From Escherichia phage 121Q, in the sequence record NC_025447.1: a stretch of DNA of 64,000 nt, one strand, 5' to 3'. The stretch's first letter is position 1, and every line of letters starts with the position of its first letter. This document shows, in pieces, positions 8,842 to 55,898 of this stretch. Below the pieces are notes generated by a model. The model made no database searches, was not told the origin of the DNA, and was given only the letters and a program-made list of their open reading frames with translations. Both the position numbers and the translations under genes were made by a program.

Positions 8842-9483
8842 ATGACTAAGCAAGAAATATTCAAAACTTTAATTGACATTTTGCGTCCATCAAAAACTCG
8901 TTGTGCGATGGAGTTTGATATTCCTTATGCTGAACGCGTAATCTTTCCACAAGTTAAAGCTGCTGGACTTACTTTGCTTGGAATGGGGATGTACTCTGTA
9001 GTAGTTGAACATAAAAACTATCCTGGGCGTGCATTTAAAGTAACCACTTCACGCTGGGATGGTTTTCGTGCTTATGCAAAGTACTGCATTGAAAACGCAG
9101 GAACCAAGTTTCTTCCAGTGATCTACAGTGCCAACGAACAAGGAAACTTTGGATGGTATGAGATGGACAAGTACTATCCTATAATTAAACAAAAAAATAA
9201 TTATGATGACTTTGTTAGTACTAAAATTGGAGATTTATATTCTTATGCACATGCTGGTCAGTACGCTACTTCAGTGAATGATATGCGTGGTAATTCTGAA
9301 GAGATTGCTATTGCAACGGTCGCTGCTAACATCATGAAAGAGTTTCACGGGCGTTTTGTACCAGACATTCATTCAAGTAATGTAATGATGGATAAAGATG
9401 GGAATGTATTCATTACTGATCCTCTTTCGTGTGATGTGCGTAGAGAAATACCAATTACTGAAGAAGATCCAGTTTTTTATTGA
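8842..9483 (+). CDS. protein kinase-like protein
   Basis: ATG 8842 with SD AGAGGA (track start 8809 lies in terminator); Gly-rich loop GMGMYSVV, AFKV lysine, D-x4-N and ITDP motifs near C-terminus. Confidence 0.55.
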   Translation: MTKQEIFKTLIDILRPSKTRCAMEFDIPYAERVIFPQVKAAGLTLLGMGMYSVVVEHKNYPGRAFKVTTSRWDGFRAYAKYCIENAGTKFLPVIYSANEQGNFGWYEMDKYYPIIKQKNNYDDFVSTKIGDLYSYAHAGQYATSVNDMRGNSEEIAIATVAANIMKEFHGRFVPDIHSSNVMMDKDGNVFITDPLSCDVRREIPITEEDPVFY

Positions 9484-9544
9484 CAGAACTGATGTTCTGG
9501 TGTATTCTTAATAAACCATAAAAATTGCGGTAAAGGATAAAATC

Positions 9545-9826
9545 ATGCGTTCATTTGAAAACTTAATAGGTAAGCATCTTTTATCTGAAATTGATGCAGA
9601 CGTTAAAGAATTATCCAAATCAAAAAGTTACATTCATTTGGATGAACTGTTTATTAAGTACGGTGAGATTGGTTTTAAGTCATTATTTGTTTTTACTATG
9701 AAAGTACATAGTTTAAAGTACTTCGATTTGAGTACTAAAGATGGTGAACCGAATCTATATTACATGTATTACCTTAAGAACAAAGATGAAGCTAATACAT
9801 TACTCTCTGAATATATATTGGGGTAA
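9545..9826 (+). CDS. hypothetical protein
   Basis: 93-aa ORF with SD AAGGA. Confidence 0.6.
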   Translation: MRSFENLIGKHLLSEIDADVKELSKSKSYIHLDELFIKYGEIGFKSLFVFTMKVHSLKYFDLSTKDGEPNLYYMYYLKNKDEANTLLSEYILG

Positions 9827-9828
9827 AA

Positions 9829-10167
9829 ATGGAACAATATTTTGAATTAATAAACAAAGTATCATTTTATGTAGTATCTTTGGTTTGGGTGTATTATATG
9901 TTTTGCTATATTATTGCATTCTTCCGATATACTACTTTATATGAACGTATCTACTATGATGCCCCAATTTCATTCTTGATGTTTTGTGCCTGTACGTGGG
10001 GAATATTAGAAGTACTGATATGTGGGTATAGTACTGATGAATTAAATCTGGTATCGGTGTTGACTGGGTTTTCATTTGTTGTTATGATAGCTGCCGTTCC
10101 AGTATGGTTGTTCTTTGGACTAGTTCATCGCATTGATATATGGCGTTCTAATATCCCTGAAAAGTAA
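9829..10167 (+). CDS. membrane protein, cluster-1 paralog
   Basis: hydrophobic; ends with basic tail and NIPEK, similar to next two genes. Confidence 0.6.
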   Translation: MEQYFELINKVSFYVVSLVWVYYMFCYIIAFFRYTTLYERIYYDAPISFLMFCACTWGILEVLICGYSTDELNLVSVLTGFSFVVMIAAVPVWLFFGLVHRIDIWRSNIPEK

Positions 10168-10170
10168 GGA

Positions 10171-10518
10171 TTGGTAATGATTTATTACACTAACATGTTT
10201 GCCTATGCTGTTGCTTGCATTTACATTGTTTACTTCTTATTCGGTGGAGTACTGTGCTTCTTTAAGTACAAAACGTTGTTCAACCGAATGTACCCAAATC
10301 ATCCAATTGTAGTTGTACTTTTGATTCTTTCAGTTTCTCAAATAATCGTTGAAACTACAATGGGTATCAGTAGTGTACATTATAGTTTTGGTACTATAGT
10401 AATTATTACTATGCTTATTGCATACATTTTAGTACTTGGATATGGTATCTTTGGTAATATTGGTATGAAAATGTATCATCGAATTAAAACATTACGTGAT
10501 AATCTACCGGAGCGTTGA
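10171..10518 (+). CDS. membrane protein, cluster-1 paralog
   Basis: SD AAGGA; paralogous to 9829 gene; ends NLPER. Confidence 0.6.
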   Translation: MVMIYYTNMFAYAVACIYIVYFLFGGVLCFFKYKTLFNRMYPNHPIVVVLLILSVSQIIVETTMGISSVHYSFGTIVIITMLIAYILVLGYGIFGNIGMKMYHRIKTLRDNLPER

Positions 10519-10519
10519 T

Positions 10520-10864
10520 ATGTATAATTTGAACCTAATCTCATATATTATAACAACACTGTTTACATTCTATGCCTTTGTTGGTATAATCCTACTGTAC
10601 TTTAAATTTTATAAAGTGTTTAACCGTTTCTATCCTTCAATGGAGAATGAGTTTTTCTTTGTGTTGTACGTAGGTTACACATTAATGGCTACATGTTTCA
10701 CTGTAGCCGATGGTGTCATCGGCATTAAAACTGATTCCCCAAATGGTAGTACGCTGGTTGCATTTATTCTTACTGGATTCCTTGCAACTTATATTGCCTT
10801 CATTACAACATGGTCAGTGGTTGAATTTCTCTTGCGACTACGAAAGAATATGCCGAATCGATAG
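10520..10864 (+). CDS. membrane protein, cluster-1 paralog
   Basis: ATG 10520 right after upstream stop (track start 10496 is internal to upstream gene); ends NMPNR. Confidence 0.6.
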   Translation: MYNLNLISYIITTLFTFYAFVGIILLYFKFYKVFNRFYPSMENEFFFVLYVGYTLMATCFTVADGVIGIKTDSPNGSTLVAFILTGFLATYIAFITTWSVVEFLLRLRKNMPNR

Positions 10865-10873
10865 GAGACATAT

Positions 10874-11128
10874 ATGTTTGCGTTGCGTAATAAAAACACT
10901 AAAGAATTATTATGTATTGATACCGTATGGGATTGTGCGGGTTCAACTACAGTTCTTGAAGAAGGAACTGGATATTGCGTGTTTGTTGTACATGATAGGA
11001 ATGAACTCGAATTATTACTTGCTGAGTTCAATGCTGGTGGTAATCCTAACAGTACTGAATACCCTGAGATTATCAATCCAGCACCTCCAGGTTCATATGA
11101 AATCCTACCACTATGGGTGTTGAAATAA
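10874..11128 (+). CDS. hypothetical protein
   Basis: 84-aa ORF with SD AGGAG. Confidence 0.55.
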   Translation: MFALRNKNTKELLCIDTVWDCAGSTTVLEEGTGYCVFVVHDRNELELLLAEFNAGGNPNSTEYPEIINPAPPGSYEILPLWVLK

Positions 11129-11508
11129 TGCGACAAATGTACAAAGTAACCGAGCTAAACAAGCGTCTGGTTAAACAATCTATGTTTGAGGATAAAGAGT
11201 CTTACTATAACTTTAAACGTGCTGTAGAGGCTGCTATCCACATTCAGAAGCTTAAAGAACGTGGTTGTATTATTCTGGAAAATGGTTCGGAAGTTGTAAC
11301 GGATGACTTTAGTGTAGCGTTTGATGTTTCACCTGATGGGACGCTATCAATGCCCCGCTTAGGAACTGGAAACATGACTGTTTGGGTTGGCTTCACTATG
11401 GGGAATGTACCTGGTACTGTGTACGTAGATGATGCGGAATTGAAAGACAGTTTCAAAAACTTATCTTATCTTGAACCACAATACGCACATGAAATGAATT
11501 TATTTTGA
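11128..11508 (+). CDS. hypothetical protein
   Basis: ATG overlapping upstream TAA (TAATG); track start 11113. Confidence 0.5.
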   Translation: MRQMYKVTELNKRLVKQSMFEDKESYYNFKRAVEAAIHIQKLKERGCIILENGSEVVTDDFSVAFDVSPDGTLSMPRLGTGNMTVWVGFTMGNVPGTVYVDDAELKDSFKNLSYLEPQYAHEMNLF

Positions 11509-11509
11509 G

Positions 11510-11537
11510 TTGACAAACACATTCAGTACTGTATAAT
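11510..11537 (+). promoter_or_regulatory. sigma70-like early promoter TTGACA-N16-TATAAT followed by stem-loop
   Basis: TTGACA at 11510, TATAAT at 11532, then GGGGATGA/TCATCCCC hairpin and SD GAGGA. Confidence 0.65.
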
Positions 11538-11584
11538 GCTTATCAAGGGGATGAACTTCTCATCCCTACAATCGAGGAACTACC

Positions 11585-12139
11585 ATGATTACTTTTAAGA
11601 AAACTGCTAACCACATCCATGAAATCTACATTAACGGTCATAAAGCTGGCCTTCTTCGTTTACTCGCCCATCACCCTGATGCTACCGTATCTGATAATGA
11701 ACCTAAAGATTGGCGTGTCTTTTTCTTTGGAAAGTACAGTGATTTTCAAGTATCAAACCTGAAGAACATTCGTTCAGTATGCACGTTAACTGAAATTAAA
11801 GAAAAGTTAGCACAAGCATTGAAAACTAATCCAGATGGTGTTCTTCCACCTGATAACTTTGTAGAGAAAGGTTATGCCTTAGCTCATTTCAAAGATGGTA
11901 CTATTCAATCTATCAGTACTGAATATGAATATCATTGGACTGAGTACTTCACTTATGGTTCGAGTAATACATTGATGGATTCACGTAGTAAATTGGAAGA
12001 AGTACTGACTCGTATGAATGAACGCGAGCGTCAGTTATATGACAAACCAGAAATGTGGAGTTCAACTTACATTGACCGTATTGACTATGTTATTATGACT
12101 CCAATCTTTGACACTGCTTACTATGATTCTTTGAAATAA
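11585..12139 (+). CDS. hypothetical protein
   Basis: 184-aa ORF downstream of promoter/stem-loop cassette. Confidence 0.65.
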   Translation: MITFKKTANHIHEIYINGHKAGLLRLLAHHPDATVSDNEPKDWRVFFFGKYSDFQVSNLKNIRSVCTLTEIKEKLAQALKTNPDGVLPPDNFVEKGYALAHFKDGTIQSISTEYEYHWTEYFTYGSSNTLMDSRSKLEEVLTRMNERERQLYDKPEMWSSTYIDRIDYVIMTPIFDTAYYDSLK

Positions 12140-12150
12140 GGATAACTTAT

Positions 12151-12327
12151 ATGAAACTACGTACTCGTAATCGACTGATGGATGCACTGTACCATGAACA
12201 GCTTTCACTGAATGAAGTGAAGCGTCAGTTAATGTACACATATCAGTTTCCCGCTCGCATTGCAAAACAACGTGCTAAAGAATTGCTGAAAGAAGCAATC
12301 GAGTACTGGGAATCTGATTCGTACTAA
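12151..12327 (+). CDS. hypothetical small protein (58 aa)
   Basis: not in ORF track; SD AAGGA 7 nt upstream of ATG; fills otherwise empty gap. Confidence 0.5.
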   Translation: MKLRTRNRLMDALYHEQLSLNEVKRQLMYTYQFPARIAKQRAKELLKEAIEYWESDSY

Positions 12328-12366
12328 TATTACGTGATATGTCACGTTAATTAAGTGAGGCGATAA

Positions 12367-12618
12367 ATGAAAATATTATTAGTTCTAATACTACTAATAG
12401 TTTTACCATTTACTTTAGTATCCCCTGGACTTGCATGGAATGTATTTGTGTACTTAGTATGTACTATTGTAGTAAATGGTATCTTGTTCTTAGTTCTATT
12501 CATAAATGGAATAGGACACGGTGGAGGATGGACCAGTACTGCTGATATTGTACATAAAACCACTATGTCTTTATTTGTAATGTGGAATTTGTTCTGGACT
12601 TGGTTTGTGTTCTTCTAA
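12367..12618 (+). CDS. membrane protein
   Basis: SD GTGAGG; hydrophobic TM-like segments. Confidence 0.6.
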   Translation: MKILLVLILLIVLPFTLVSPGLAWNVFVYLVCTIVVNGILFLVLFINGIGHGGGWTSTADIVHKTTMSLFVMWNLFWTWFVFF

Positions 12619-12626
12619 TTAAAAAT

Positions 12627-12998
12627 ATGAATATAGATTTGAAAGGTGCAACACGAACTGTTATCCTCATTGGGGAATATGCTATCAAGATTCCAACCTT
12701 TAAAAGTTGGAAGCTATTCTTAACAGGGATGATAGCTAACCTCAATGAACGTTCGTGGATGCAGTACTCCAATCGTAGTGATAGTAGTATCTGTCCTACG
12801 TTGTGGTCATCATGTACTGGACTAGTAACTGTACAGAAACGTTGTAAGCCAGTGCAACATAGGGGTTTATTTTGGGTGGAGTTGTGTGCATTAGCATCTA
12901 AATCAGAGTTGAGTACTGACTTCTTCTATTCAGATGCGAAGCCAGAAAACTTTGGGTATCTGGGTGGTAAGTTAGTTAAACTTGATTATGGAGATTAA
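12627..12998 (+). CDS. protein kinase-like protein (short)
   Basis: contains YAIK lysine motif, SDAKPEN catalytic-loop-like motif and KLDYG; start uncertain (GTG 12582 or ATG 12627). Confidence 0.5.
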   Translation: MNIDLKGATRTVILIGEYAIKIPTFKSWKLFLTGMIANLNERSWMQYSNRSDSSICPTLWSSCTGLVTVQKRCKPVQHRGLFWVELCALASKSELSTDFFYSDAKPENFGYLGGKLVKLDYGD

Positions 12999-12999
12999 T

Positions 13000-13269
13000 A
13001 TGTACGCACTGTATAATAAAGAAAAGAAACGATTTGCTAAGGTTGAAATTTCGATTGATACATTTGATATGTTGGAGTACTGTATTGTAACTGACCTATA
13101 TGCTAACTTGTATTACGTTCTTGATGACGTATCAGTACTGCAACGATTGCTTGAGAATTCCAAAAGTCAATGCCAGGGCATCCATGATGGTTCATCTTAT
13201 GAAACACCTGAGTGTTCCTACGGCTATCTGGACGGGTATGAGATTGTGAAGTTGGGGATCATTGAATAA
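13000..13269 (+). CDS. hypothetical protein, shares C-terminal motif with kinase-like family
   Basis: SD GGAG; C-terminal YGYLDGYEIVKLG resembles C-termini of 12627 and 55314 proteins. Confidence 0.5.
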   Translation: MYALYNKEKKRFAKVEISIDTFDMLEYCIVTDLYANLYYVLDDVSVLQRLLENSKSQCQGIHDGSSYETPECSYGYLDGYEIVKLGIIE

Positions 13270-13275
13270 AGAAAA

Positions 13276-13301
13276 GGGTTGACTTCGGTCAGCCCTTTTT
13301 G
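13276..13301 (+). terminator. intrinsic terminator, UUCG-loop hairpin
   Basis: GGGTTGACTTCGGTCAGCCC then TTTTT. Confidence 0.8.
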
Positions 13302-13308
13302 CTATAAT
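13279..13308 (+). promoter_or_regulatory. promoter embedded in terminator (TTGACT-N18-TATAAT)
   Basis: TTGACT is part of the terminator stem; TATAAT at 13303; SD GAGAGGA before denV. Confidence 0.5.
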
Positions 13309-13336
13309 TATTTCATCAAGACGAGAGGATGAATAC

Positions 13337-13852
13337 ATGACACGCATTAACTTAGTACACGTTAAAGAACTTGCTGACCAACATCTGATGGCTGAATATC
13401 GTGAACTCCCACGTGTATTTGGTGCTGTACAAAAACACGTTCAAGCACGTAAGCGTGTACGTGATTTCAAAATTAATAGTACTTATCTGTTAGGTTCAGG
13501 TCATGTGACATTCTTTTACGACAAGTTATTGTACTTACAGAAGCGTCATATTGATATTGTCAACGAATGTCTGCGTCGTGGTATGAAGATTCAAAACACT
13601 GAAGTAAACGACATTAGCGGCTTCCCTGCTGAGTTTTGTAATGACTACGTACCAACGGAGTCAGAGATTAAAATGTCTCGTGATCGTTTGATTGAGAAGC
13701 TCCAGATGAAGCCTACGTGGTATAAGTTTACTGATGTTGAATGTCCACAGTACGTTAAAGATATGCAGAACGTAAGTAGTAAGAACGAATCTAGTACTGA
13801 TATGTTCGACGAAATTGAAGAACAAATCAAAGATGAAATGAATAATTATTAA
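13337..13852 (+). CDS. denV: endonuclease V, pyrimidine-dimer DNA glycosylase/AP lyase
   Basis: N-terminal [30 protein letters not shown] and later [15 protein letters not shown] blocks match T4 endonuclease V; about 30-aa acidic C-terminal extension. Confidence 0.9.
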
Positions 13853-13890
13853 AGGAAAGGGTTGACTTCGGTTACACAAAGGAACATAAC

Positions 13891-14085
13891 ATGTTATTAG
13901 TATATTCAACGCGTTTCTGGATTTCTTTTATTGTACTATCGCTAATCGGCTTCGGTTTGAGTATACTCTTTTCGTGGGATGAATTGGGTACATGGTATTA
14001 TGAAGTCCCGTGGTACATGAAGATAGCTCCTTGTTATGCGGCATTGTTCGTGTCATTCCTTATTGTTGTCTTCAGCGAGGATTAG
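13891..14085 (+). CDS. small membrane protein
   Basis: SD AAAGGAA; two hydrophobic segments. Confidence 0.5.
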   Translation: MLLVYSTRFWISFIVLSLIGFGLSILFSWDELGTWYYEVPWYMKIAPCYAALFVSFLIVVFSED

Positions 14086-14136
14086 TTGATGTAGTATGTG
14101 CTACACCAAAGTATTTGGATATTTTAGATATAAACA

Positions 14137-29233: not shown

Positions 29234-30424
29234 TTACAATTGTCTAGGTGTATCCAGTACATATCTATTTGTAGTAGGACCACCATCATCATATGTTCCG
29301 GTTGAATATATATTTTTCATATCAGCAGTTAGGAAAGTACGATACGAACCGCGATATATTTTTATTTTATCATACATAGAATATGTTATTCCTGACGGCA
29401 ATGGACATGCAGTAAATTTACCAATAGTAACATTAGAACCAACACCCAATGAACCAGCATAGGCACTCGCATTTAAACCAGTTGCATATACACCTGTACT
29501 CGTAATTAGTATACTAGATTGTGTTGGGTATCCAGTATGAATTGAATACAAAGTACCAGGTGGTAGAGTAGTACTGTTATTTCCTAAAACTCCATTAACA
29601 GTGCTAGATGTAGTGTTATTTCCCCATGCTCCATTATTAGCTAACCCACCCACTAGGAACTGACGTGCTCCTGTATTTGGATTTTCAACTAAAGCACTTA
29701 CTGCACCAGTTGAGCATCCTGTGTATTGTAACGTTTTTGTGTATGTTGTATTTGGTTGATATAAAGTATATTCATTATATGAAGTCCATGTAGTCGCGGA
29801 ACTTATACCGGATGTAACACCACCAATATATAAATTATTTTGTTTATCAAACAACAATACACAGTTATTTGTTGACTGTATTTGTGCAATATCAACATTA
29901 GGTGTGACCGCTTTTACAAATGAACCATCGGTTATTTCATAAGTAGTTCCCGTTCCATCGGCGAATTGTCTAGCACTGTTCCACCCTGTACTCCATATTG
30001 TATTATTGTCCATTAAGAAAGTAAACCACGTAGTACCTGCATACATCTGTTTAATTGAAGTACTTGAACTTTGTGTGTACAAATTTTGAATATATTGGTT
30101 ATAACTTAAAAACGTAGTAGTACTAGTTGATAAACCAATATGACTACCATATCCACAGTAATAATAATTTGAGTCATTGTCTTTTACTAATAAAGTTCCT
30201 TGTGTAAGCCAGCAATCGTTAACGTTTTCTCTAATTAATGTCCATGATTTTAATGCAGTGTTGTTTCCTCTACCGAATTTCCCAAAACTATTAGTCCCAC
30301 GTGCATATAGTTGACCATCCGTATACAGAACCACAACATCTAAATCAGTTGGGATTATTTTCTTAATTTTAAGTGGTACTGGGGCAATATTCCCATAATT
30401 CATCATTCTTGCAAAAGGTAACAT
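29234..30424 (-). CDS. RCC1-like repeat (beta-propeller) protein, paralog H
   Basis: leader MLPFARMMNYGNIAP; Gly/Thr/Ser/Asn-rich repeats. Confidence 0.75.
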   Translation of the reverse strand: MLPFARMMNYGNIAPVPLKIKKIIPTDLDVVVLYTDGQLYARGTNSFGKFGRGNNTALKSWTLIRENVNDCWLTQGTLLVKDNDSNYYYCGYGSHIGLSTSTTTFLSYNQYIQNLYTQSSSTSIKQMYAGTTWFTFLMDNNTIWSTGWNSARQFADGTGTTYEITDGSFVKAVTPNVDIAQIQSTNNCVLLFDKQNNLYIGGVTSGISSATTWTSYNEYTLYQPNTTYTKTLQYTGCSTGAVSALVENPNTGARQFLVGGLANNGAWGNNTTSSTVNGVLGNNSTTLPPGTLYSIHTGYPTQSSILITSTGVYATGLNASAYAGSLGVGSNVTIGKFTACPLPSGITYSMYDKIKIYRGSYRTFLTADMKNIYSTGTYDDGGPTTNRYVLDTPRQL

Positions 30425-30495
30425 ATTTCCCTCCTTTATTCATTATACTATATTTAATACAAATAAGAAAGCCAGTACAGTGTACTGGCATTATA
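30425..30495 (-). promoter_or_regulatory. intergenic cassette: terminator hairpin plus promoter-like and SD block
   Basis: GCCAGTACACTGTACTGGC hairpin, conserved block. Confidence 0.55.
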
Positions 30496-31635
30496 TTATT
30501 TCCACGGTAGAAGTGAATCAGGAACCCTTGTTGGTACAGTAGTTGAAGACATTCCAGTAAGATTGGGTACACCACATGTGTATAAATTATTATATTCGTC
30601 AACTAACATCGTATAAGAATAGCTCTTACAAAAACTACTAAGATTACTACCTTCTAATGCAGTAAGATCCATTTCAGCGAATGATGTTATATACATATCA
30701 GTTGTACCAATACCACATTGACCATTTGAATTAAGGCCACATGAAAATAACTTATTATTATTATTAATTATACAGGATGGTCCGGTAAGGTTTGTCCCAA
30801 GCTCACCCACCAACTCCACTTCTCCTTGGAATGATAAATTTGGAATTAATGTACTCATTGGGGCTACTGACCTATTTCCTGTACCTGCTTGTCCATAGTC
30901 GTTAATAGATGCAACTTTAACATTACCATCATTAAGAAATATATAAGAAGTTTCATTTGTATTGACTGCTTTAATTGCATTACTAATCGAAGTATCTTGT
31001 GTAAATGTGAGCAAGTTTTGTGTCGTCGTTCCTGATACAAACGTTCTACCTGCATACCAATATGAACCATCATTTAGTACTAATCCAGTACTATATATTG
31101 CACAACCAGCACTGATAACATTTTCTATTGTACTATAGGTGAATCGTGAAACGCTTGAAGTTGATCCATTCCCAAAAACACCACCAGTACCAGCACCACA
31201 GTAGAACCACTTTCCATTTTTTAAAAATACACGCATACACGAAGATATCACAACACTATCAATATCATCTGCACTGACACCGAAATCAGTAAAGTTCTGT
31301 GTTATATCAACCCAAACGCCGTTAGTGTTTGAAGATAGTATTGGAATAACAGTACGTCTACCAGTGTACCAAATAGTACCATCTTTCTTTATAGCAATTG
31401 TTCCTTGTACCCCACCCCAATATCGTGTAACATTTGAGTTGACAAGAGTCCATTCAGTTGAAGAGTCCAATGAACTATTACCACTTTGTCCATATGCTGA
31501 AGAACCAAACCAATATAGATTGCCATTTGTGTGTAAATAAAATTTGGCATCAGCAGAACATTGTAACCTGTTTTTAGGTAGAATCAGTTCAGGTGCGATA
31601 TTCCCGTACTTAACCATTCTTGCAAAAGGTAACAT
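30496..31635 (-). CDS. RCC1-like repeat (beta-propeller) protein, paralog I
   Basis: start at conserved MLPFARMVKYGNIAP (track ORF reads through the intergenic region); close paralog of K, same C-terminus VPTRVPDSLLPWK. Confidence 0.75.
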   Translation of the reverse strand: MLPFARMVKYGNIAPELILPKNRLQCSADAKFYLHTNGNLYWFGSSAYGQSGNSSLDSSTEWTLVNSNVTRYWGGVQGTIAIKKDGTIWYTGRRTVIPILSSNTNGVWVDITQNFTDFGVSADDIDSVVISSCMRVFLKNGKWFYCGAGTGGVFGNGSTSSVSRFTYSTIENVISAGCAIYSTGLVLNDGSYWYAGRTFVSGTTTQNLLTFTQDTSISNAIKAVNTNETSYIFLNDGNVKVASINDYGQAGTGNRSVAPMSTLIPNLSFQGEVELVGELGTNLTGPSCIINNNNKLFSCGLNSNGQCGIGTTDMYITSFAEMDLTALEGSNLSSFCKSYSYTMLVDEYNNLYTCGVPNLTGMSSTTVPTRVPDSLLPWK

Positions 31636-34032: not shown

Positions 34033-34106
34033 AATTCCCTCCTTTATTCATTATACTATATTTAATACAAAAAAGAAAAGCCAGTATCAAGTACTGGCAT
34101 ATCAAA
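34033..34106 (-). promoter_or_regulatory. intergenic cassette: terminator hairpin plus promoter-like and SD block
   Basis: GCCAGTACTTGATACTGGC hairpin, GTATTAAATATAGTATAATGAATAAAGGAGG. Confidence 0.55.
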
Positions 34107-35255
34107 TCACTGCAAAAATGACATATCGACTTCGGTATAATTAAGAACGTTCTGTCCAGCAATACCTCCCATTACTACAATTGAAGCCCCACAATAATAT
34201 AACTTCGAAGTGTCAGTAAGTATAAGTGAACCAGATGGGGTGCGTACCAAATTACACGAAGTATTAAACGAAGTATATGAAGGGGTATAAGAGTACTGAT
34301 TAATATTATTACCAACACCTAATTGACCAGACGAGTTGCTTCCAGATGCATAAAGTACTTCATCACCTTTAACTATATGTGACGCCATGTTACCAACACA
34401 AGTATATAAACTATAAACTCCTGAACTCAATAATGTTGGAGTTTTGTATTGTATATCTGTAGATGAAGAAGTACCACCTGTGCCAAATTCGTTCCCGTAT
34501 TGTGCACCGAACTGTTTACCACAAGCGTACAAATTATTATCCGATTTAATAAAAAATGTACTCTGATAACTGACATTACAATCTATAACATCCGAAGAAA
34601 TCATCGTCACCCCAGTAATAGAAGTTTGATTGCCTGTACCTAACTGATAGTAATAGTTAAAACCACAACCCCATAAAGTATTATCTTCTTTTAGGTATAT
34701 GTTACCAACTGCCTTTTTAACCGAAGTTATAGTATCTACCCTTTTGAATGTGTTAAAAGAATTAATGTTTGTACCATCACCAAATGATGATAGGTTAGAG
34801 TTATTGTTAGCTCCACAACAATACAATGTACCATCGTTTGTTATCAAATTTACCTTCATATCATTAAAACTACTCATGTATTTTATATCAGAAACATTAA
34901 TACCACCTGATGTTATCCATGTAGTACAGTCCGTCCACAAAGTTTTTCTATCAGTTACACCAGTGAATGCCTTCGTGTTGCCAGTGATAAAAACTTTTCC
35001 CGTACCTTTCTCTTCGTACAATTGACAATCACTACTGTTATCTTCCAATAGAACTCGTTTAACATTCTCCGCACAAAGAATAAATTTACTCGATGCTACA
35101 CCTGTTCCAGTACCCCAATTCGTCGCAGAAGATGCATACAACTTATCAGTATAAGTATCATGAAGATACATGGAATCACTGGAATATATTTTAAAACGTC
35201 CATCATCACCAGGGGCAATATTCCCGTACTTAACCATTCTTGCAAAAGGTAACAT
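34107..35255 (-). CDS. RCC1-like repeat (beta-propeller) protein, paralog L
   Basis: start at conserved MLPFARMVKYGNIAP; close paralog of F. Confidence 0.75.
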   Translation of the reverse strand: MLPFARMVKYGNIAPGDDGRFKIYSSDSMYLHDTYTDKLYASSATNWGTGTGVASSKFILCAENVKRVLLEDNSSDCQLYEEKGTGKVFITGNTKAFTGVTDRKTLWTDCTTWITSGGINVSDIKYMSSFNDMKVNLITNDGTLYCCGANNNSNLSSFGDGTNINSFNTFKRVDTITSVKKAVGNIYLKEDNTLWGCGFNYYYQLGTGNQTSITGVTMISSDVIDCNVSYQSTFFIKSDNNLYACGKQFGAQYGNEFGTGGTSSSTDIQYKTPTLLSSGVYSLYTCVGNMASHIVKGDEVLYASGSNSSGQLGVGNNINQYSYTPSYTSFNTSCNLVRTPSGSLILTDTSKLYYCGASIVVMGGIAGQNVLNYTEVDMSFLQ

Positions 35256-35303
35256 AATTCCCTCCTTATTCATTATATCATATTTACCCAATAAAGAAAA
35301 CCC

Positions 35304-49876: not shown

Positions 49877-50056
49877 ATGGCTATTATCGCAAAAACTGAA
49901 ATCATCGGCCTGGATTCTATCATCATGACGTTTGAAGATCAAAAAGGGATGTATGTAGTTTCCTATGGTGATTATGTTCGGGAGTATGAAACAGTAGACG
50001 AAGCCTTTGAAAGTTACATTCGCCAGGTTAATAAAGCATACGACGATTACCGCTAA
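49877..50056 (+). CDS. hypothetical small protein (59 aa)
   Basis: ATG 49877 with the same AAGGAATACTAAAATGGCT initiation region as the 47365 gene; track start 49805 lies in the promoter. Confidence 0.55.
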   Translation: MAIIAKTEIIGLDSIIMTFEDQKGMYVVSYGDYVREYETVDEAFESYIRQVNKAYDDYR

Positions 50057-50155
50057 AATATATTACCAGTACTATTAAATCTATTGACAATGTTTGATAG
50101 TACTGTATAATAAGTTTTATAAACAGTAGTTAACTTAACCTAAGAGAGAAAAATC

Positions 50156-50299
50156 ATGACAGCATTAGATTCATTCATCGACGCAGTACTGGCAAAAACT
50201 GGCGAGGATCTGACCGCAGAACAATACGCGATGATCGAACAATGTCAGCAAGACGGTAAATCGGTGAAAGATACTGTTAAGATTATCCGCAAGATGTAA
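50156..50299 (+). CDS. hypothetical small protein (47 aa)
   Basis: not in ORF track; SD AAGAGAG; terminator-like hairpin follows. Confidence 0.45.
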   Translation: MTALDSFIDAVLAKTGEDLTAEQYAMIEQCQQDGKSVKDTVKIIRKM

Positions 50300-50305
50300 G
50301 ATTAT

Positions 50306-50334
50306 AGCCCACTGGTTAACGCTGGTGGGCTTTA
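50306..50334 (+). terminator. terminator-like hairpin
   Basis: GCCCACTGG-n5-CTGGTGGGC imperfect hairpin followed by TTTAATCATTT. Confidence 0.45.
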
Positions 50335-50404
50335 ATCATTTACCCTATACAATGCCAGTACTAAACCGTTTAACTCGTTAGAATGCGTTACAGGACGTTT
50401 AACA

Positions 50405-50602
50405 ATGATTAGCATGAAATCAGTACAAAAACAAATAGAAACATTATCAAAAATTAAACGTAAACAGTACTCATTAGAATATACAATCAATGGTAACTAT
50501 CATCTAATGAAAGAAAATAATTTTATAGTCATTGATGAATCATTGCAGATCATTAGTATAGTACTGAAAGCATTAATCAATGACAGAAAAAAGTTAAAAT
50601 AA
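50405..50602 (+). CDS. hypothetical protein
   Basis: 65-aa ORF, weak SD. Confidence 0.4.
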   Translation: MISMKSVQKQIETLSKIKRKQYSLEYTINGNYHLMKENNFIVIDESLQIISIVLKALINDRKKLK

Positions 50603-50662
50603 TCTATTGACAATATTATCCAGTACTGGCATAATACTTACATCAAGACGAGAACGTCACTA

Positions 50663-50675
50663 ACCCATAGGGTGC
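50663..50675 (+). repeat. dispersed element copy (variant)
   Basis: ACCCATAGGGTGCACAAATGTAACTAT. Confidence 0.45.
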
Positions 50676-50689
50676 ACAAATGTAACTAT

Positions 50690-50780
50690 ATAATATCGAT
50701 CAATAAATGATCAAAAAAGTACTGGATCAATTTAGCATAAGGCGTATAATTCTGATCAAATCTTGATCAAAGGCAATAAA
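50690..50780. repeat. cluster of five TGATCAA (GATC) sites
   Basis: CGATCAA, TGATCAA, GGATCAA, TGATCAA, TGATCAA within about 90 bp of non-coding DNA. Confidence 0.5.
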
Positions 50781-50931
50781 CGTAGTTGAAATTATATAGA
50801 AAGTACAAAGGCGTTACCATTCGTGGTAATGCTGGGGAATATGTAGTATCATACGGTTTGAATAAAATCAGTACTAGTAGTATTATTGTAGCATTACAGT
50901 ACTATAGTATTTTTATAATGAGGTTAAAATA

Positions 50932-51189
50932 ATGGCTGTTGGATTCGCGAAGGACGGGGCCGAGCAAGACGAGATTAACGCAGTGATTCAGGCCGCTGTA
51001 AACCACGCTAGAACGCAAATTAACGCACAAATAGAATCACTGATACATTGCCTCGACTGCGGCGATAAAATCCCTGAGAATCGCCGCCTGGCCGTTAAGG
51101 GGTGTAAGTACTGCATCACTTGCCAGGCTGATCATGATAGCATATTCAAACGCAATCCCCGTAATTGTTGGCATAGATCTATGAGATAA
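50932..51189 (+). CDS. TraR/DksA-family C4 zinc-finger protein
   Basis: CLDCGDKIPENRRLAVKGCKYCITCQ matches the TraR/DksA C4 zinc-finger pattern (compare F-plasmid TraR CEACGNPIPEARRK...CVECQ); SD GAGG. Confidence 0.75.
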   Translation: MAVGFAKDGAEQDEINAVIQAAVNHARTQINAQIESLIHCLDCGDKIPENRRLAVKGCKYCITCQADHDSIFKRNPRNCWHRSMR

Positions 51190-51195
51190 AAAGTA

Positions 51196-51223
51196 TTGAC
51201 AGTACTGTTAGTTAGTGTATAAT
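51196..51223 (+). promoter_or_regulatory. sigma70-like promoter TTGACA-N16-TATAAT
   Basis: TTGACA 51196, TATAAT 51218, SD TGAGGA. Confidence 0.6.
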
Positions 51224-51252
51224 ATTTTATATCTTAACTGAGGATTGAAATC

Positions 51253-51609
51253 ATGGGTATACAACATATCACGCGTACTACAGACAATGGTGAGATCACT
51301 GGCTATCAAGTACAAGGCAAAGTAGCACAATTGCAGTACTGGTTTGTTAAACGTGGCATTGTTGCACCGGATCTTGATTATGATCGTGTAGCGTTTATTG
51401 ATTCTCTTTATGTTGATCCCGATAATCGCGGTAACGGTGAAGGTACTGAGTTAATGAATGCCTTTATTGATGCCGCCGATGATTCAGATTGTATCATCTT
51501 AGAATGCGATACTGGAGAAGATAACGAGTTTAATCTTAAAGAATGGTATGAAGGTTTTGGATTTGAAGTACTGATTAACTGCGAATATCCTATAATGATT
51601 TTATCCTAG
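51253..51609 (+). CDS. GNAT-family N-acetyltransferase-like protein
   Basis: VDPDNRGNGEGTELMNAFIDAA resembles GNAT motif A; WYEGFGFE motif. Confidence 0.55.
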   Translation: MGIQHITRTTDNGEITGYQVQGKVAQLQYWFVKRGIVAPDLDYDRVAFIDSLYVDPDNRGNGEGTELMNAFIDAADDSDCIILECDTGEDNEFNLKEWYEGFGFEVLINCEYPIMILS

Positions 51610-51688
51610 TACTTGCAATTAGTTTTAAGTACTGTATAATAGTTTACATGAAGGGGAGAATAGTTCTCCCCACTACAAGGAAAGACAA

Positions 51689-51877
51689 ATGCAAAACTTA
51701 TCAAGTATTTTAGTACAAGATGATTTCGGTAATCCTGGAAGTGCTATCATCGTTCGGGGCAATAAGGCAACGTTTGTTATTGCTGGTGGACCTGTACAGC
51801 GTAGCATTAAAAACAATGCAGTTACAATCAATAATGTTCGCTATCGCTTAGATAAAGAATTGATTCATAAACTTTAA
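51689..51877 (+). CDS. hypothetical protein
   Basis: promoter, GGGGAGAATAGTTCTCCCC stem-loop, SD AAGGAAA. Confidence 0.6.
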   Translation: MQNLSSILVQDDFGNPGSAIIVRGNKATFVIAGGPVQRSIKNNAVTINNVRYRLDKELIHKL

Positions 51878-51962
51878 AAAAGTATTTGACAAAGCATTGT
51901 AGTACTGTATAATAGTTTACATGAAGGGGAGAAATGATTCTCCCCACTAAGAGGAAAGAAAC

Positions 51963-52175
51963 ATGCAAGGTCAACTAATCGTTCGTAAATGGTCTGATAC
52001 TAACGAAAAACCGTGGGATGTTCAATATATCGGACCGGACGGTGTTTCACGTTATCAACCTGGCGTAACGCATAGTACTGAGCAATATGCCGCCGCTCAC
52101 CGCGAACGCCTGTTAGAATCTATGAAACAGGGATTCTGTGAAAAATTCATTCAAGATCATTGGCTGAAAGATTAA
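51963..52175 (+). CDS. hypothetical protein
   Basis: promoter, GGGGAGAAATGATTCTCCCC stem-loop, SD AGAGGAA. Confidence 0.6.
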   Translation: MQGQLIVRKWSDTNEKPWDVQYIGPDGVSRYQPGVTHSTEQYAAAHRERLLESMKQGFCEKFIQDHWLKD

Positions 52176-52194
52176 TATATAAGGAGTACAGCTT

Positions 52195-52287
52195 ATGCAA
52201 ATGAATCCGATGATTGTTGTGTTAGCTGTACTTATGATCATTCATGCCATCGTAGAAGTACTAACACAATCAGGAGTAATACAATGA
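52195..52287 (+). CDS. small hydrophobic peptide (30 aa)
   Basis: not in ORF track; SD AAGGAG 8 nt before ATG. Confidence 0.35.
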   Translation: MQMNPMIVVLAVLMIIHAIVEVLTQSGVIQ

Positions 52288-52454
52288 TCCAAGTAGAATT
52301 ATCAGTACTGAAAGATCTGTTTTATCGGTTAGGCACTACTGGCGAATACCCTAAAGGGGATACTGCTAAACTATACATTGCATTGGATGTATGGCAACGT
52401 AATGAACTGGCTAACGCCTGGCGTAAAGGTAAATCAGAGGGGATTGCAGCATGA
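52284..52454 (+). CDS. hypothetical small protein (56 aa)
   Basis: not in ORF track; ATGA overlap with upstream stop. Confidence 0.4.
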   Translation: MIQVELSVLKDLFYRLGTTGEYPKGDTAKLYIALDVWQRNELANAWRKGKSEGIAA

Positions 52455-52600
52455 AAGAATTTTTATTCGAAGTAGTGTTCCAGGGCGTAGGAAGTAACCA
52501 ACTGATTCGATCAAGTGGTTACAATGTTAACCAGGCATGGAATAACATTAAACAAATGTACCCGAACGCTATCACATATCGCAACCCAAAACAAGTTTAA
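52451..52600 (+). CDS. hypothetical small protein (49 aa)
   Basis: not in ORF track; ATGA overlap; followed by terminator. Confidence 0.4.
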   Translation: MKEFLFEVVFQGVGSNQLIRSSGYNVNQAWNNIKQMYPNAITYRNPKQV

Positions 52601-52614
52601 AAAGAATAAAAAAA

Positions 52615-52640
52615 GGGATTGACTCCGGTCAGTCCCTTTG
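52615..52640 (+). terminator. intrinsic terminator, UCCG-loop variant
   Basis: GGGATTGAC-TCCG-GTCAGTCCC then TTTG; followed by GCTATTATATA. Confidence 0.7.
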
Positions 52641-52666
52641 CTATTATATACGCATAGACAAAAACT

Positions 52667-52679
52667 AGCCCACAGGGTG
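52667..52679 (+). repeat. dispersed CTAGCCCACAGGGTGC element copy
   Basis: ACTAGCCCACAGGGTGCATAAATGTATCTAT. Confidence 0.55.
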
Positions 52680-52783
52680 CATAAATGTATCTATTATATG
52701 CTGGTGGCTAGTACTATCAAGTACTGAAAACTATTTTTAAAAAGTACTTGCATTGTACTTAGAATCAAGTATAATGTTTTACA

Positions 52784-52858
52784 TCAGGACGGGGAACGAA
52801 ACAAGTAACCCCGTTAAGTAGTCCAGGAGTAAGACATACGAAAACCTCCCCTGATAAA
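52784..52858 (+). ncRNA. candidate small RNA or leader element (copy 2)
   Basis: near-identical to 42810-42890; promoter (TTGCAT 52748, TATAAT 52770) upstream; no ORF. Confidence 0.3.
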
Positions 52859-52863
52859 ATAGT

Positions 52864-52891
52864 TTGACAATAGAAATTAAACAAGTATAAT
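52864..52891 (+). promoter_or_regulatory. sigma70-like promoter TTGACA-N16-TATAAT
   Basis: TTGACA 52864, TATAAT 52886, SD AGAGGAA before ATG 52922. Confidence 0.6.
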
Positions 52892-52921
52892 ACTTACATC
52901 AACCACAAAGAGGAATACAAA

Positions 52922-53122
52922 ATGAAACATTTTACTTTCGGTGTAGTAGGCTTTACAGTATCCAGCGGCGTTTATAAATCAGAACGCGGTGCTAAAAATG
53001 CAGCAAGTCGGGCGTATGGTTCACAGCGTGACTTACAGGTCGGTTATATTAGTAACATTAATAACATGTTTATTCCTGTTTCACAGCGTAAAGCGGGTAA
53101 CATGAAATGGGAAACAATTTGA
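52922..53122 (+). CDS. hypothetical protein
   Basis: 66-aa ORF behind consensus promoter. Confidence 0.6.
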   Translation: MKHFTFGVVGFTVSSGVYKSERGAKNAASRAYGSQRDLQVGYISNINNMFIPVSQRKAGNMKWETI

Positions 53123-53131
53123 TAAAATAGT

Positions 53132-53159
53132 TTGACAATAGTTTTTAGTACTGTATAAT
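53132..53159 (+). promoter_or_regulatory. sigma70-like early promoter TTGACA-N16-TATAAT plus stem-loop
   Basis: TTGACA 53132, TATAAT 53154, GTGGGGAATAGTTCCCCAC hairpin. Confidence 0.65.
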
Positions 53160-53211
53160 ATTTTACATCAAGTGGGGAATAGTTCCCCACCTAACAAAGA
53201 GAGAAATTAAA

Positions 53212-53487
53212 ATGCGGATTCTACTGACAGCTAACGAAATCGAGCAAGTACTGACTACTAACCTGGAAGACTGGAAACGTGATGCAGATATCCAGGCGGT
53301 GCAATGGCTCAATGATAAGTTAACGCCGGATGATTTAAGTAAGATTGTAGATCCACAATTCTATGAAGATATTCACGACACGGCTTTAAGCGTCGAGGAT
53401 GTACTTGATAAGCACTACATTGATATTGATTTGCAGGTTTACGGTCGTAAAAACTTTATCACTATTCACGACATTTATAATAATTAA
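53212..53487 (+). CDS. hypothetical acidic protein
   Basis: 91-aa ORF after promoter/stem-loop/SD. Confidence 0.6.
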   Translation: MRILLTANEIEQVLTTNLEDWKRDADIQAVQWLNDKLTPDDLSKIVDPQFYEDIHDTALSVEDVLDKHYIDIDLQVYGRKNFITIHDIYNN

Positions 53488-53574
53488 GTATTGACAAAGT
53501 ATCTTAGTACTGTATAATAGTTTACATCAAGGCAGGGGAATGGTTCCCCTCCTAACTAAAAGAGAGAAATTAAA

Positions 53575-53898
53575 ATGACTATGATCCTTACCCAGAAAGT
53601 AGAAATGAAAATTGTAACTTCCTTTGACATTAAAGTCAATCGGTGGACTGATAGCCACGGCAATACTTACCACTCATGCTACGTGTCTGCATTGATTGGT
53701 GACCGCTGGGAAGACCTGGGACATGAAACCTTTACTTACGGTTACGGTACACAAGGCGAATACACGGGCTTGGAGATCATTAAAGAAACTGTAATAGGTT
53801 TCAACCCGAAAGAGAAAGTACTACACAGAATTGAGGATGAGATCAACAAAGAAATTACAGTTCGTTACTACGATGTAAAACGTAAGAAAGATATGTAA
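53575..53898 (+). CDS. hypothetical protein, paralog of 47365 gene
   Basis: shared NRWTDSHGNTYHSCYVS and FTYGYG blocks; promoter and stem-loop upstream. Confidence 0.65.
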   Translation: MTMILTQKVEMKIVTSFDIKVNRWTDSHGNTYHSCYVSALIGDRWEDLGHETFTYGYGTQGEYTGLEIIKETVIGFNPKEKVLHRIEDEINKEITVRYYDVKRKKDM

Positions 53899-53997
53899 TA
53901 GAATCCATTTAAAGTACTATTTGACATTGCCCAGATAGTACTTTATAATAGACTCTAACTTGTAGTACTAATTAACTTAACTAATAGGATGTACACC

Positions 53998-54393
53998 ATG
54001 ATTACTAAATTCTTCGCTACCCGTGAACAAGCTCGCATCGTTGCCCGTGAAGAAGGTGAAACATTTAAAGACATGGGCAAAGATGCACCGAAAGGACAAC
54101 GCTGGGCGGTACAGTTCAAAGAGATCTCTGATATTGTGAATTCACCTGAGCCTGTACTTACAGCAGCAGAACTAAAGCAAGCTCAAGAACTGGCTGAAGT
54201 ACTGAACGCTCAAGATGACTTTTTGAAAGGTTCTGATATTGAAGTTACAGTTAACGCAAATGCATGGACTCACGCGGATCACCTGGCAAACCTTAAGCGT
54301 CCAAGTGAACTGATTCGTAACCAGAAAGAGATCCGTCATGACCGTAAAGGAAACCGTGTAACAGTATACAGTAAACGCCGCCAGGTTATCTAA
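53998..54393 (+). CDS. hypothetical protein, paralog of 41941 gene
   Basis: ATG 53998 (SD TAGGA); shared FATREQARIVAREEGETFKDMG and HDRKGNRVTVY blocks. Confidence 0.6.
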   Translation: MITKFFATREQARIVAREEGETFKDMGKDAPKGQRWAVQFKEISDIVNSPEPVLTAAELKQAQELAEVLNAQDDFLKGSDIEVTVNANAWTHADHLANLKRPSELIRNQKEIRHDRKGNRVTVYSKRRQVI

Positions 54394-54416
54394 TAACTTT
54401 GCAGTACTAACAACAC

Positions 54417-54442
54417 GGCGGGAATATTTCCCGCCTTTTTTA
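54417..54442 (+). terminator. intrinsic terminator
   Basis: GGCGGGAA-TAT-TTCCCGCC hairpin then TTTTTT. Confidence 0.75.
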
Positions 54443-54455
54443 TAGGATAAACAAA

Positions 54456-54710
54456 ATGATTAAGGTTCAACTATCAAACGATAATGTATTACGGGTACAC
54501 TATAAAGCTCCACAGAGAATCATCACAAAGGCCGTACAGCTTGCTAATGAGTTTATTAATGGTAGTCTATTGCCTAGGAAGTTAAGCAACGGGAAACTAC
54601 GTGTAATCGACGTAGACACTAACAATAGAATAGTGATCGAGAGTACTGGAAAAATTAATCTATATGAACACCAACAATACAATAAAAAAATAAAACTAAT
54701 ATCACGTTGA
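54456..54710 (+). CDS. hypothetical protein
   Basis: 84-aa ORF, SD TAGGA. Confidence 0.55.
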   Translation: MIKVQLSNDNVLRVHYKAPQRIITKAVQLANEFINGSLLPRKLSNGKLRVIDVDTNNRIVIESTGKINLYEHQQYNKKIKLISR

Positions 54711-54763
54711 CAGTACTCAAATGTTTTAGTATTATGTATCTATACCAACACAGGAGAAACAAA

Positions 54764-54982
54764 ATGAAATTATCTAAAATCGAAAAGAAAACTATTGATG
54801 AAGCAGTGAAGCACGGTTATACCTTTCGTAATGATTCACACTTCACCAGTTTTCAACAGGGAAACCGTACCATCAAAAAACTCATTGATAAAGGTTTACT
54901 CACTAAGGTTGATAACGGGAACGGTGTAGAATATCAACCGACAGAAGACGCATTATCACTAAAGAAATATTCTATTATCTAA
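54764..54982 (+). CDS. hypothetical protein, possible winged-helix DNA-binding
   Basis: ATG 54764 after TTGACA...TATTAT promoter and SD AGGAG; winged-helix call is a weak guess from RTIKKLIDKGLLTK. Confidence 0.55.
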   Translation: MKLSKIEKKTIDEAVKHGYTFRNDSHFTSFQQGNRTIKKLIDKGLLTKVDNGNGVEYQPTEDALSLKKYSII

Positions 54983-55039
54983 TTGACAGTACTCAAATGT
55001 TTTAGTACTATGTACGCATACCAACACGGGGAAAACAAA

Positions 55040-55282
55040 ATGATTACTTTAGAAAAACGTATCAAAGAGACTACAACGCTGGTGGAACTGTTAACCGTTC
55101 TTAAATGCCGGGTAACTCCATTCAGTACACCGGACTTTATCAACATGGTGGACGTTAACGGTCGCTATCGTATTGCGGTCGAACAAGGTACGGCAAAAGT
55201 ATTCAGTACTAAAAATACGCGTGAAGTATTCCACGCAGTTCAAGTAAAAAAAGTAGTTGCCATTGATAGTAAAGTACTGTAA
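55040..55282 (+). CDS. hypothetical protein
   Basis: ATG 55040 behind a duplicated copy of the 54711-54763 promoter/leader. Confidence 0.55.
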   Translation: MITLEKRIKETTTLVELLTVLKCRVTPFSTPDFINMVDVNGRYRIAVEQGTAKVFSTKNTREVFHAVQVKKVVAIDSKVL

Positions 55283-55313
55283 TATAGTTTCATTAACTCA
55301 AGGAGTCAACACA

Positions 55314-55898
55314 ATGCGTAACTATACTAAATTCATCCGTTCACTTCATGCAATGGAAACCAACAAAGAGATCCTTTCAGCTTGTCGGTTAGCTGGACTG
55401 GAGATCGTCGGTGCGGGTTCTTCCCGTATTGTATTCGCTTTAAATGATCGGTTAGTGATTAAGGTCGCGAATTGTGATGCGGGTGTAGAACAAAATGAAA
55501 CTGAATGTAAGGTATGGAATTTTTTAGATTATGACCGTCCGCACCTTAAACAGTTCTTTGCCAAGGTGCATATGCATTTATGCGATCCTGATAATCTGCT
55601 TATTGTTATGGATCGTTTGAGTACTGCAAGCAAAGGCAGTGTAAAGCACGTAACCGCATGTAATGAGTTAAAGTACAATATTAAACGTAACACTATTGAA
55701 CGCCATCACCATTTCGCTGATGCTCTCAATCACGTTGATGATACATTATCCACACTAACGATAAGAGATATCAGAAAACAGAATATCGGCCAGGATCGCA
55801 ACGGCTTGATTAAAGTACTTGATTACGGTTTAACCCGCAATATCTGGAATCAGTACTATAAAAAACGTGATGTTAACGCGATAACTATAACACGATAA
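55314..55898 (+). CDS. protein kinase-like protein
   Basis: GAGSSRIVF Gly-rich loop, VIKV lysine, RDIRKQN catalytic-loop-like and VLDYG motifs; SD AAGGAG. Confidence 0.6.
   Translation: MRNYTKFIRSLHAMETNKEILSACRLAGLEIVGAGSSRIVFALNDRLVIKVANCDAGVEQNETECKVWNFLDYDRPHLKQFFAKVHMHLCDPDNLLIVMDRLSTASKGSVKHVTACNELKYNIKRNTIERHHHFADALNHVDDTLSTLTIRDIRKQNIGQDRNGLIKVLDYGLTRNIWNQYYKKRDVNAITITR

Follow-up and report, generated by a model that had tools for sequence, protein, structure and literature searches.

The kinase of phage T7 (gp0.7, hereafter T7K) is an early kinase acting on Ser, Thr and Tyr, hyper-promiscuous and able to disarm defence systems (PMC13645617; Jiang 2024, via PMC12345140). Its kinase domain spans residues 1-242, with the DFG-equivalent motif DPV at residues 213-215. 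This domain ends soon after the DFG-equivalent, and T7K is a kinase of dual specificity that is hyperactive and disarms defences (PMC13645617). OspG is also active without subdomains VIII-XI of the kinase fold (PMC12756638). The homologues of T7K in jumbo phages have lost its shut-off domain and carry a DPV-like motif in which the Val is less conserved (PMC13645617), and the homologue in the jumbo phage Escherichia phage G17 has been listed in the T7K family (Bartolec et al., Nature 2026, PMC13645617).

Here we document three genes encoding truncated kinase-fold proteins in Escherichia phage 121Q, together with their families, folds and conserved residues. The window, by which we mean the whole stretch of 64,000 nucleotides analysed (sequence record NC_025447.1), carries on its plus strand gene A (8842..9483), encoding a protein of 213 amino acids that we assign to the kinase domain of the T7K family, devoid of the shut-off domain; gene B (12627..12998), whose product of 123 amino acids is the short form of the family PHROG 4301; and gene C (55314..55898), whose product of 194 amino acids is the long form of the same family. 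By analogy with T7K, these proteins are probably constitutively open, poorly selective ATP-dependent phosphotransferases used in host takeover or counter-defence. A sequence-only reading of the window had suggested that A, B, C and a further open reading frame (ORF) at 13000-13269 (hereafter D) form a group of three to four mini-kinases or pseudokinases. The three genes are real: the ORFs are present at these coordinates, their starts are backed by alignments of homologues, and the motifs noticed in them are conserved in these homologues. The kinase-like fold is borne out as well, by the confident N-lobe of the C model, which matches kinases and kinase-like folds in Foldseek, and by the homology of A to the T7 kinase.

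Two families of truncated kinase-fold proteins

Protein A is 100% identical to a protein of phage SP27. It matches PHROG 15752 at 5e-92 and the family of the T7 kinase, PHROG 2828, at 8e-17, and a tblastn search retrieved about 760 gene 0.7 kinases of Autographiviridae with 26-30% identity. Residues 41-196 of A align to residues 68-216 (of 359) of T7 gp0.7 (BLASTP E=6e-9, 27% identity), and this alignment places the GxG of the Gly-loop, the Lys, the DxHxxN and the ITDP motifs in register. In an alignment of 21 sequences the motifs of A are G47-x-G49, K66, D175-x-H-x-x-N180 and I-T-D193-P-L, where G47/G49, K66, D175, N180 and D193 are invariant. The place of DFG is taken by D193-P194-L195, with the D and the P invariant and the L nearly so, and there is no clear residue for the Glu of helix alphaC, the candidate being D73 in the motif SRWDGxR. 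The homologues of A carry PF27024. The protein stops 20 residues past ITD and the C-terminal basic DNA-binding shut-off domain is absent. Together, these alignments place gene A in the jumbo-phage branch of the T7K family, reduced to the kinase domain. Since the record of phage G17 labels the gene 'putative protein kinase', the authors of the Sharanji study identified its homologue as a T7 kinase homologue and the G17 protein is listed in PMC13645617, A was already known as a member of the T7K family.

Proteins B and C both match PHROG 4301, which is listed as "unknown function". Of the 225 positions of this profile, the match of B (1.3e-43) covers 40-167 and that of C (2.2e-42) covers 11-185. 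Their joint alignment has seven invariant positions, namely G35, K50, E64, D152, N157, D170 and G172 in the numbering of C, and two further features are common to both forms: a Gly-loop of the type G-x-[ST]-R-x-V, whose Arg is invariant, and a conserved face of alphaC with the pattern G-x-x-x-N-x-x-E. E64 of C and E41 of B each fall within a helix in the predicted structures. As judged from these profiles and alignments, PHROG 4301, a family that is apparently borne by phages and prophages, has a long form of about 195 residues, to which C belongs, and a short form of about 120 residues, to which B belongs.

Protein C is identical to 121Q PBI_121Q_308, named 'Protein kinase domain-containing protein' in UniProt. 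Several GenBank records label its homologues as protein kinases, that of phage Muenster citing an HHpred result of 99.9%, and in the Sharanji paper the homologue WNN14351.1 features as 'another protein kinase', its function being given as unknown. Gene C is thus annotated and mentioned in the literature as a kinase, and is uncharacterised. Its motifs are the Gly-loop G33xG35, K50, E64, R-D152-I-R-K-Q-N157 and D170-Y-G172; the protein starts with a helical hairpin and ends with a tail of 22 residues past DYG. In a search of PDB sequences, residues 135-187 align with the region of MKK4 that extends from HRD to DFG. The AlphaFold2 model is confident over residues 1-100, which comprise the two N-terminal helices, strands b1-b3, helix aC and strands b4-b5, with a pLDDT score, the predicted value of the local distance difference test, above 88 in the N-lobe. 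The top Foldseek matches of this model are kinases and kinase-like folds: Lpg2603, APH(2''), SAICAR synthetase, p38, NleH2, MKK4 and PRPK. Units of the C type also occur in tandem, as we observed in the metagenomic proteins P0068, P0125, P0138, P0189 and P0190 (638-969 residues), which contain three to four such units with Gly-loop, Lys, Glu and DYG present in every copy.

Protein B is identical to 121Q PBI_121Q_215 and called 'hypothetical' in all Asteriusvirus records checked. It contains G7, K21, E41, D103-A-K-P-E-N108 and D120-Y-G122, and the stop codon follows one residue past DYG. Its AlphaFold2 model has a pLDDT of 96.9 and a predicted template modelling score of 0.87, and shows the elements of a kinase in the order b1-b2-b3, aC, b4-b5, a single helix (aE), the catalytic loop, b7-b8 and DYG. 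All the 50 Foldseek matches listed for this model are kinases, with TTK/Mps1 first (template modelling scores 0.5-0.65), and the sequence profile of B aligns to the region of TTK between HRD and DFG. The relatives of B found by word-indexed search (hereafter B-type) are all 118-127 residues long. An exhaustive search with a profile of B and C retrieved 1,727 representatives of clusters at 50% identity with E<=1e-3, 663 of them with E<=1e-10. Among the 150 best matches, about 90% are 110-160 residues long and were matched up to their own C-terminus. In an alignment of 114 B-type sequences G7, R10, K21, E41 and D120 are 100% conserved, P23, G34, N38 and G110 are conserved at 98%, and the DFG-type Asp lies 2-3 residues from the C-terminal end in 93 of the proteins. 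The residues of the catalytic loop that correspond to the Asp and Asn of kinases co-vary in these members, with D..N in 68, E..S in 24, E..N in four and D..S in none, which suggests that chemistry at this loop is under selection.

None of the 114 B-type members matches a Pfam kinase model, save for one weak match to PIP49_C; neither the B-type proteins nor T7K nor the fusion proteins are covered by a model in Pfam; and NCBIfam and PADLOC gave no meaningful match, only weak ones to the kinase loop of PD-T4-6. We found no description of the B-type family in the searchable literature. B itself is unannotated, and the very large family to which it belongs is apparently undescribed there; with about 120 residues and an end at the DFG equivalent, B shows the kinase fold in a new architecture.

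B-type genes are present in 118 phage records (tblastn), a few of which carry a Ser/Thr kinase label. Among these records are Asteriusvirus, Aeromonas phages, T4-like phages (JS10, G4507), Schitoviridae and Pseudomonas siphophages, as well as coliphage and Salmonella phage records of 85-145 kb and jumbo phages (OBP, Miami and phages of Erwinia and Ralstonia). They lie in hyperplastic accessory regions. A clustering of their neighbours at 26 loci from diverse phages revealed no conserved partner gene. In a lambdoid prophage of Salmonella enterica the gene is an isolated insert between Rz and Nu1 (L003/L004 4001-4372), a classic position for a moron, and its GC content of 40-47% is lower than that of most windows flanking it (about 50-58%). 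As a separate observation, phages unrelated to one another have B-type genes a short way upstream of genes for nucleic-acid repair: a gene for a DenV-like glycosylase follows in our window (13337-13852) and at two loci of Pseudomonas phages (L025 3501-3989 and L031 3500-3994), and the RNA ligase gene rnlB follows immediately in the T4-like phage JS10 (L041 2847-3854). These cases are too few to be told apart from chance.

Predicted activity and its alternatives

The mechanism that we propose starts from polypeptides that stop at the DFG-equivalent Asp, or about 20 residues past it. B and C keep the Gly-loop, beta3 Lys, alphaC Glu, acid and Asn/Ser of the catalytic loop and Mg-binding Asp, and A keeps all of these save a clear alphaC Glu. 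The sequence-only reading was right that none of the three has a normal C-lobe, as A, B and C all lack the activation segment and subdomains VIII-XI; its statement that they end 20-25 residues past the DFG-like motif describes A (20) and C (22), and not B, which ends one residue past DYG. It is this loss, combined with the maintenance of the catalytic residues, that makes constitutively open and poorly selective phosphotransferases the most likely interpretation. Expression would come from host-type promoters and be early, with C located in a terminal-repeat block of small genes with near-consensus promoters. During takeover or counter-defence, proteins of the host (and of the phage) might then be their substrates, in the way demonstrated by experiment for T7K. 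Catalytic activity, protein substrates, among them the host proteins suggested by the sequence-only reading, and a role in counter-defence are what we infer for A, B and C from the analogy with this enzyme. Pseudokinases, the other option raised by the sequence-only reading, are not favoured: the catalytic residues are invariant or co-vary in a functional manner, and T7K is hyperactive in spite of being equally truncated (PMC13645617). Since these residues are conserved in B and C, both are unlikely to be pseudokinases.

A number of arguments weigh against this proposal. First, B lacks alphaF and all the parts that usually bind the phospho-acceptor, and because of this a self-sufficient protein kinase of its size would be unprecedented. 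Second, Glu and Ser replace Asp and Asn in the catalytic loop of about one quarter of the B-type members. Third, the Pfam kinase matches of C are below the gathering cut-offs (PK_Tyr_Ser-Thr 5e-4, 19.8 bits for a cut-off of 23.1; Pkinase 2e-3, 17.8 bits for a cut-off of 31.7), A and B have none, and the C-terminal half of the C model has low confidence (pLDDT 45-72). Fourth, hyper-promiscuity is no general feature of phage kinases, and the shut-off domain responsible for targeting is missing from the jumbo-phage homologues of T7K (PMC13645617). Fifth, the morons of Salmonella prophages could point to a role in lysogens and not in lytic takeover. Finally, the early timing is deduced from matches to promoter-like consensus sequences, and early expression is to be taken as putative. 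In the boldest version of the proposal, put forward as a tentative possibility, the short form of PHROG 4301, which has no more than the N-lobe, a single helix, the catalytic loop and an Mg-binding Asp, would be a self-sufficient phosphotransferase of about 120 residues, smaller than any other protein of the kinase fold that works autonomously. Diverse phages and prophages would employ it, unregulated and promiscuous, to modify host proteins or the signalling molecules of defence.

B, and possibly C, might not be a stand-alone kinase at all, and act instead as an ATP-binding switch or ATPase, or as a binder whose catalytic cleft is completed or activated with the help of a partner, supplied by the host or by oligomerisation. 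The activation of OspG requires the binding of ubiquitin-charged E2 (E2~Ub; PMC12756638), and the absence of alphaF and of an activation segment in a protein that ends right after DYG is in line with such a dependence. We regard this as unlikely: no phage-encoded partner is evident, because the 26 diverse loci have no conserved neighbouring gene, and the strict conservation and the co-variation of the catalytic-loop residues favour chemistry over mere binding. Other minimal kinase-like proteins operate in this manner, Bud32 (in KEOPS) and RIO (on pre-40S ribosomes) mainly as ATPases, and if B were inactive, or a switch dependent on a partner, it would extend the theme of Bud32, RIO and OspG to phages.

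The acceptor of the B-type proteins might also be something other than a protein: nucleic-acid ends or tRNA, small molecules, or the nucleotides that serve defence systems as second messengers. The structural neighbours also comprise, at equal rank, aminoglycoside kinases of the APH(2'') type, the archaeal RNA kinases Ark1/ArkI (173-216 residues), viomycin and macrolide kinases and SAICAR synthetase, the cleft is fully open on the acceptor side, and B-type genes precede the DenV-like genes and rnlB mentioned above. Yet the D-x-K-P-E-N of the catalytic loop fits the HRDLKPEN of Ser/Thr protein kinases and not the type found in APH or choline kinases, the top matches at the sequence level are the protein kinases TTK and MKK4, and the associations with neighbours are few and lie within hyperplastic regions, which makes this alternative rather improbable.

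The idea of a single family of three to four mini-kinases or pseudokinases with D among them, suggested by short common motifs visible by eye and by a local match between B and D (PE-NFGYLGG-KLVKL and PECSYGYLDGYEIVKL, p=0.05), is refuted as regards D and the single family, because A is invisible to B and C in profile-profile comparisons and D belongs to PHROG 8563 and lacks the kinase residues. The conservation of the catalytic residues in A, B and C speaks against pseudokinases.

The comparisons behind this dismissal deserve some detail. Comparing A, B, C and D by BLASTP with each other and with all the ORFs of the window gave no match, and pairwise Smith-Waterman alignments of A, B, C and D were not significant against shuffled sequences (p = 0.05-0.5); the relationships are visible at the profile level only. 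At this level the motifs align as a family for B with C, in the joint alignment of PHROG 4301, and not for A with either of them. The alignments of B/C with A have an hhalign probability of 0.65%, which is not significant, and the two families, T7K and PHROG 4301, are therefore kept apart. Neither A nor D matches PHROG 4301, and B and C have no sequence relationship with T7K detectable with PHROG profiles or hhalign. The hidden Markov models (HMMs) of the three alignments found no further kinase-like ORF among the 607 of the window, which were not scanned with general kinase models.

ORF D, located directly 3' of B, had been counted as a relative on account of its C-terminal motif. Its score against the B-family HMM is insignificant (E=0.24 in a search of the 607 ORFs of the window), it has no Gly-loop, Lys, Glu or DFG Asp, and at other loci B-type genes do not have it as a neighbour. 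A paralogue of D at 10874-11128, also of PHROG 8563 (unknown function), adjoins no kinase. By these comparisons ORF D is unrelated to the other genes and not kinase-like. D is translationally coupled to B, with a gap of 1 nucleotide and a Shine-Dalgarno sequence inside B, and for this reason we considered whether it could be the missing C-lobe of B. This was ruled out: a second copy of PHROG 8563 exists elsewhere, D is in a different reading frame, none of the 26 other B-type loci has a D-like neighbour, and most B-type proteins end at DYGx.

Genomic setting of the three genes

The window stems from a jumbo phage of the genus Asteriusvirus, and near-identical Escherichia phages in this genus are CRJP21, G17, Sharanji, SP27 and PBECO4 (megablast of 8000-14000 and 54400-56400). 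An intrinsic terminator, made of a hairpin and a T-run (8779..8805, plus strand), separates gene A from the unit before it; it was mapped from the annotation of G17 and its sequence was read directly. Ribosome-binding sites (GAGGA/AAGGAG) precede A (8842) and C (55314). Directly downstream of A, the region 9829-10864 encodes in tandem three small hydrophobic proteins of 112-115 residues. The first and the second are similar over their full length (25% identity, E=6e-9), the second and the third over 40 residues (E=8e-5, both by BLASTP), and all three have the common C-terminal end R-x-N-[IML]-P-[EN]-[KR].

Gene B is part of a five-gene unit (11585-13269) that has at its putative head a promoter-like site with a perfect sigma-70 consensus (11510..11537, plus strand; TTGACA-16-TATAAT, 12/12 matches) and is bounded at its 3' side by a terminator annotated in G17, mapping to 13276-13295. 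The start of B (12627) lies 8 nucleotides past the stop of the gene before.

Gene C lies inside a block at 50-59 kb rich in near-consensus sigma-70 promoters. A promoter scan placed a sigma-70-type promoter-like site (54983..55011, plus strand; TTGACA-17-TACTAT), within the repeat family D8 of this block, at the putative head of a short unit formed by 55040-55282 and C, and a terminator-like hairpin with a stem of 12 pairs (55910..55937, plus strand) begins 12 nucleotides past the stop codon of C. The homologues of C are within the direct terminal repeat of 20-21.5 kb of phages vB_Ec-M-J and Muenster. The near-consensus sigma-70 promoter TTGACA-N17-(GTACTG)TATAAT occurs at least 13 times between 50074 and 58773, ahead of nearly every small gene (repeat families D1, D2, D4 and D6), and many of these copies then carry a GC hairpin (GGGGAGAA..TTCTCCCC) and a ribosome-binding site. 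Depletion of Ser, Thr and Tyr has been reported for the early proteins of phages encoding T7K. When the predicted proteins were pooled, the sum of these residues reached its minimum, 15.7% (Ser 4.7%), in the block 50000-64000, where C is located, and was 17.8-25% elsewhere; the direction is the expected one, but it is confounded by the class of genes and we did not use it as evidence.

Other repetitive features of the window lie apart from the three genes. On the minus strand, an array of 11 paralogous genes (21089-35273) encodes proteins of 250-430 residues with mutual identities of 23-68%, and coincides with a strand switch and a negative GC skew. Between 35787 and 39194, on the plus strand, paralogous ORFs of about 60 residues occur in runs, e.g., at 37668, 37852, 38184, 38427 and 38614, and also at 36236, 36430 and 36621. 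A tandem duplication of 226 nucleotides, 81% identical (repeat family D3), is present at 62798-63249.

Comparison with known systems

It was newly shown that many defences of bacteria are disarmed by the T7 kinase, through phosphorylation that is pervasive. The jumbo phages of the 121Q/G17 group encode a homologue of T7K without the shut-off domain and two more truncated kinases, which suggests that takeover based on phosphorylation may be layered and widespread beyond Autographiviridae. If B were active, it would define the minimal catalytic core of the kinase fold, provide a compact and regulation-free tool for phosphorylation, and give a testable function to a large family of "unknown function" that spans T4-like, N4-like, FelixO1-like and jumbo phages, Pseudomonas siphophages and Salmonella prophages.

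RIO, Bud32 and Ark1 are ATPases on ribosomes or KEOPS, or tRNA 2'-kinases. They differ from the proteins described here in that they keep a helical C-lobe past the metal-binding Asp, and no sequence relationship with them was detected. With the 'minimal' effector kinases OspG of Shigella and NleH of EPEC there is similarity at the level of the fold only, and no sequence match in PDB searches. They act in eukaryotic cells, where OspG is activated by E2~Ub, and the C-lobe helices of OspG (196 residues) persist past the DFG-equivalent, whereas B (123 residues) stops one residue after DYG.

The best structural and sequence-profile matches are canonical eukaryotic-like Ser/Thr/Tyr protein kinases, e.g., TTK/Mps1, MKK4 and PknB, of which B and C keep the Lys-Glu pair and the Gly-loop. 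The (S/R)D-x-K/R-x-x-N and D-Y-G motifs of B and C likewise align with the HRDLKPxN and DFG of canonical kinases. In contrast to the latter, B and C lack the activation segment, the APE motif and helices alphaF-alphaI, and they have an invariant Arg in the Gly-loop and the G-x-x-x-N-x-x-E face on alphaC, with scores below the thresholds of the Pfam models.

T7K (PHROG 2828), considered together with JSS1_004, has in A a sequence homologue, and T7K and A both end about 20-30 residues past the DFG-equivalent. They differ in that A has DPL and not DPV, and lacks the C-terminal DNA-binding shut-off domain that directs T7K to nucleic-acid-binding proteins. By analogy, B and C may work in a way similar to T7K.

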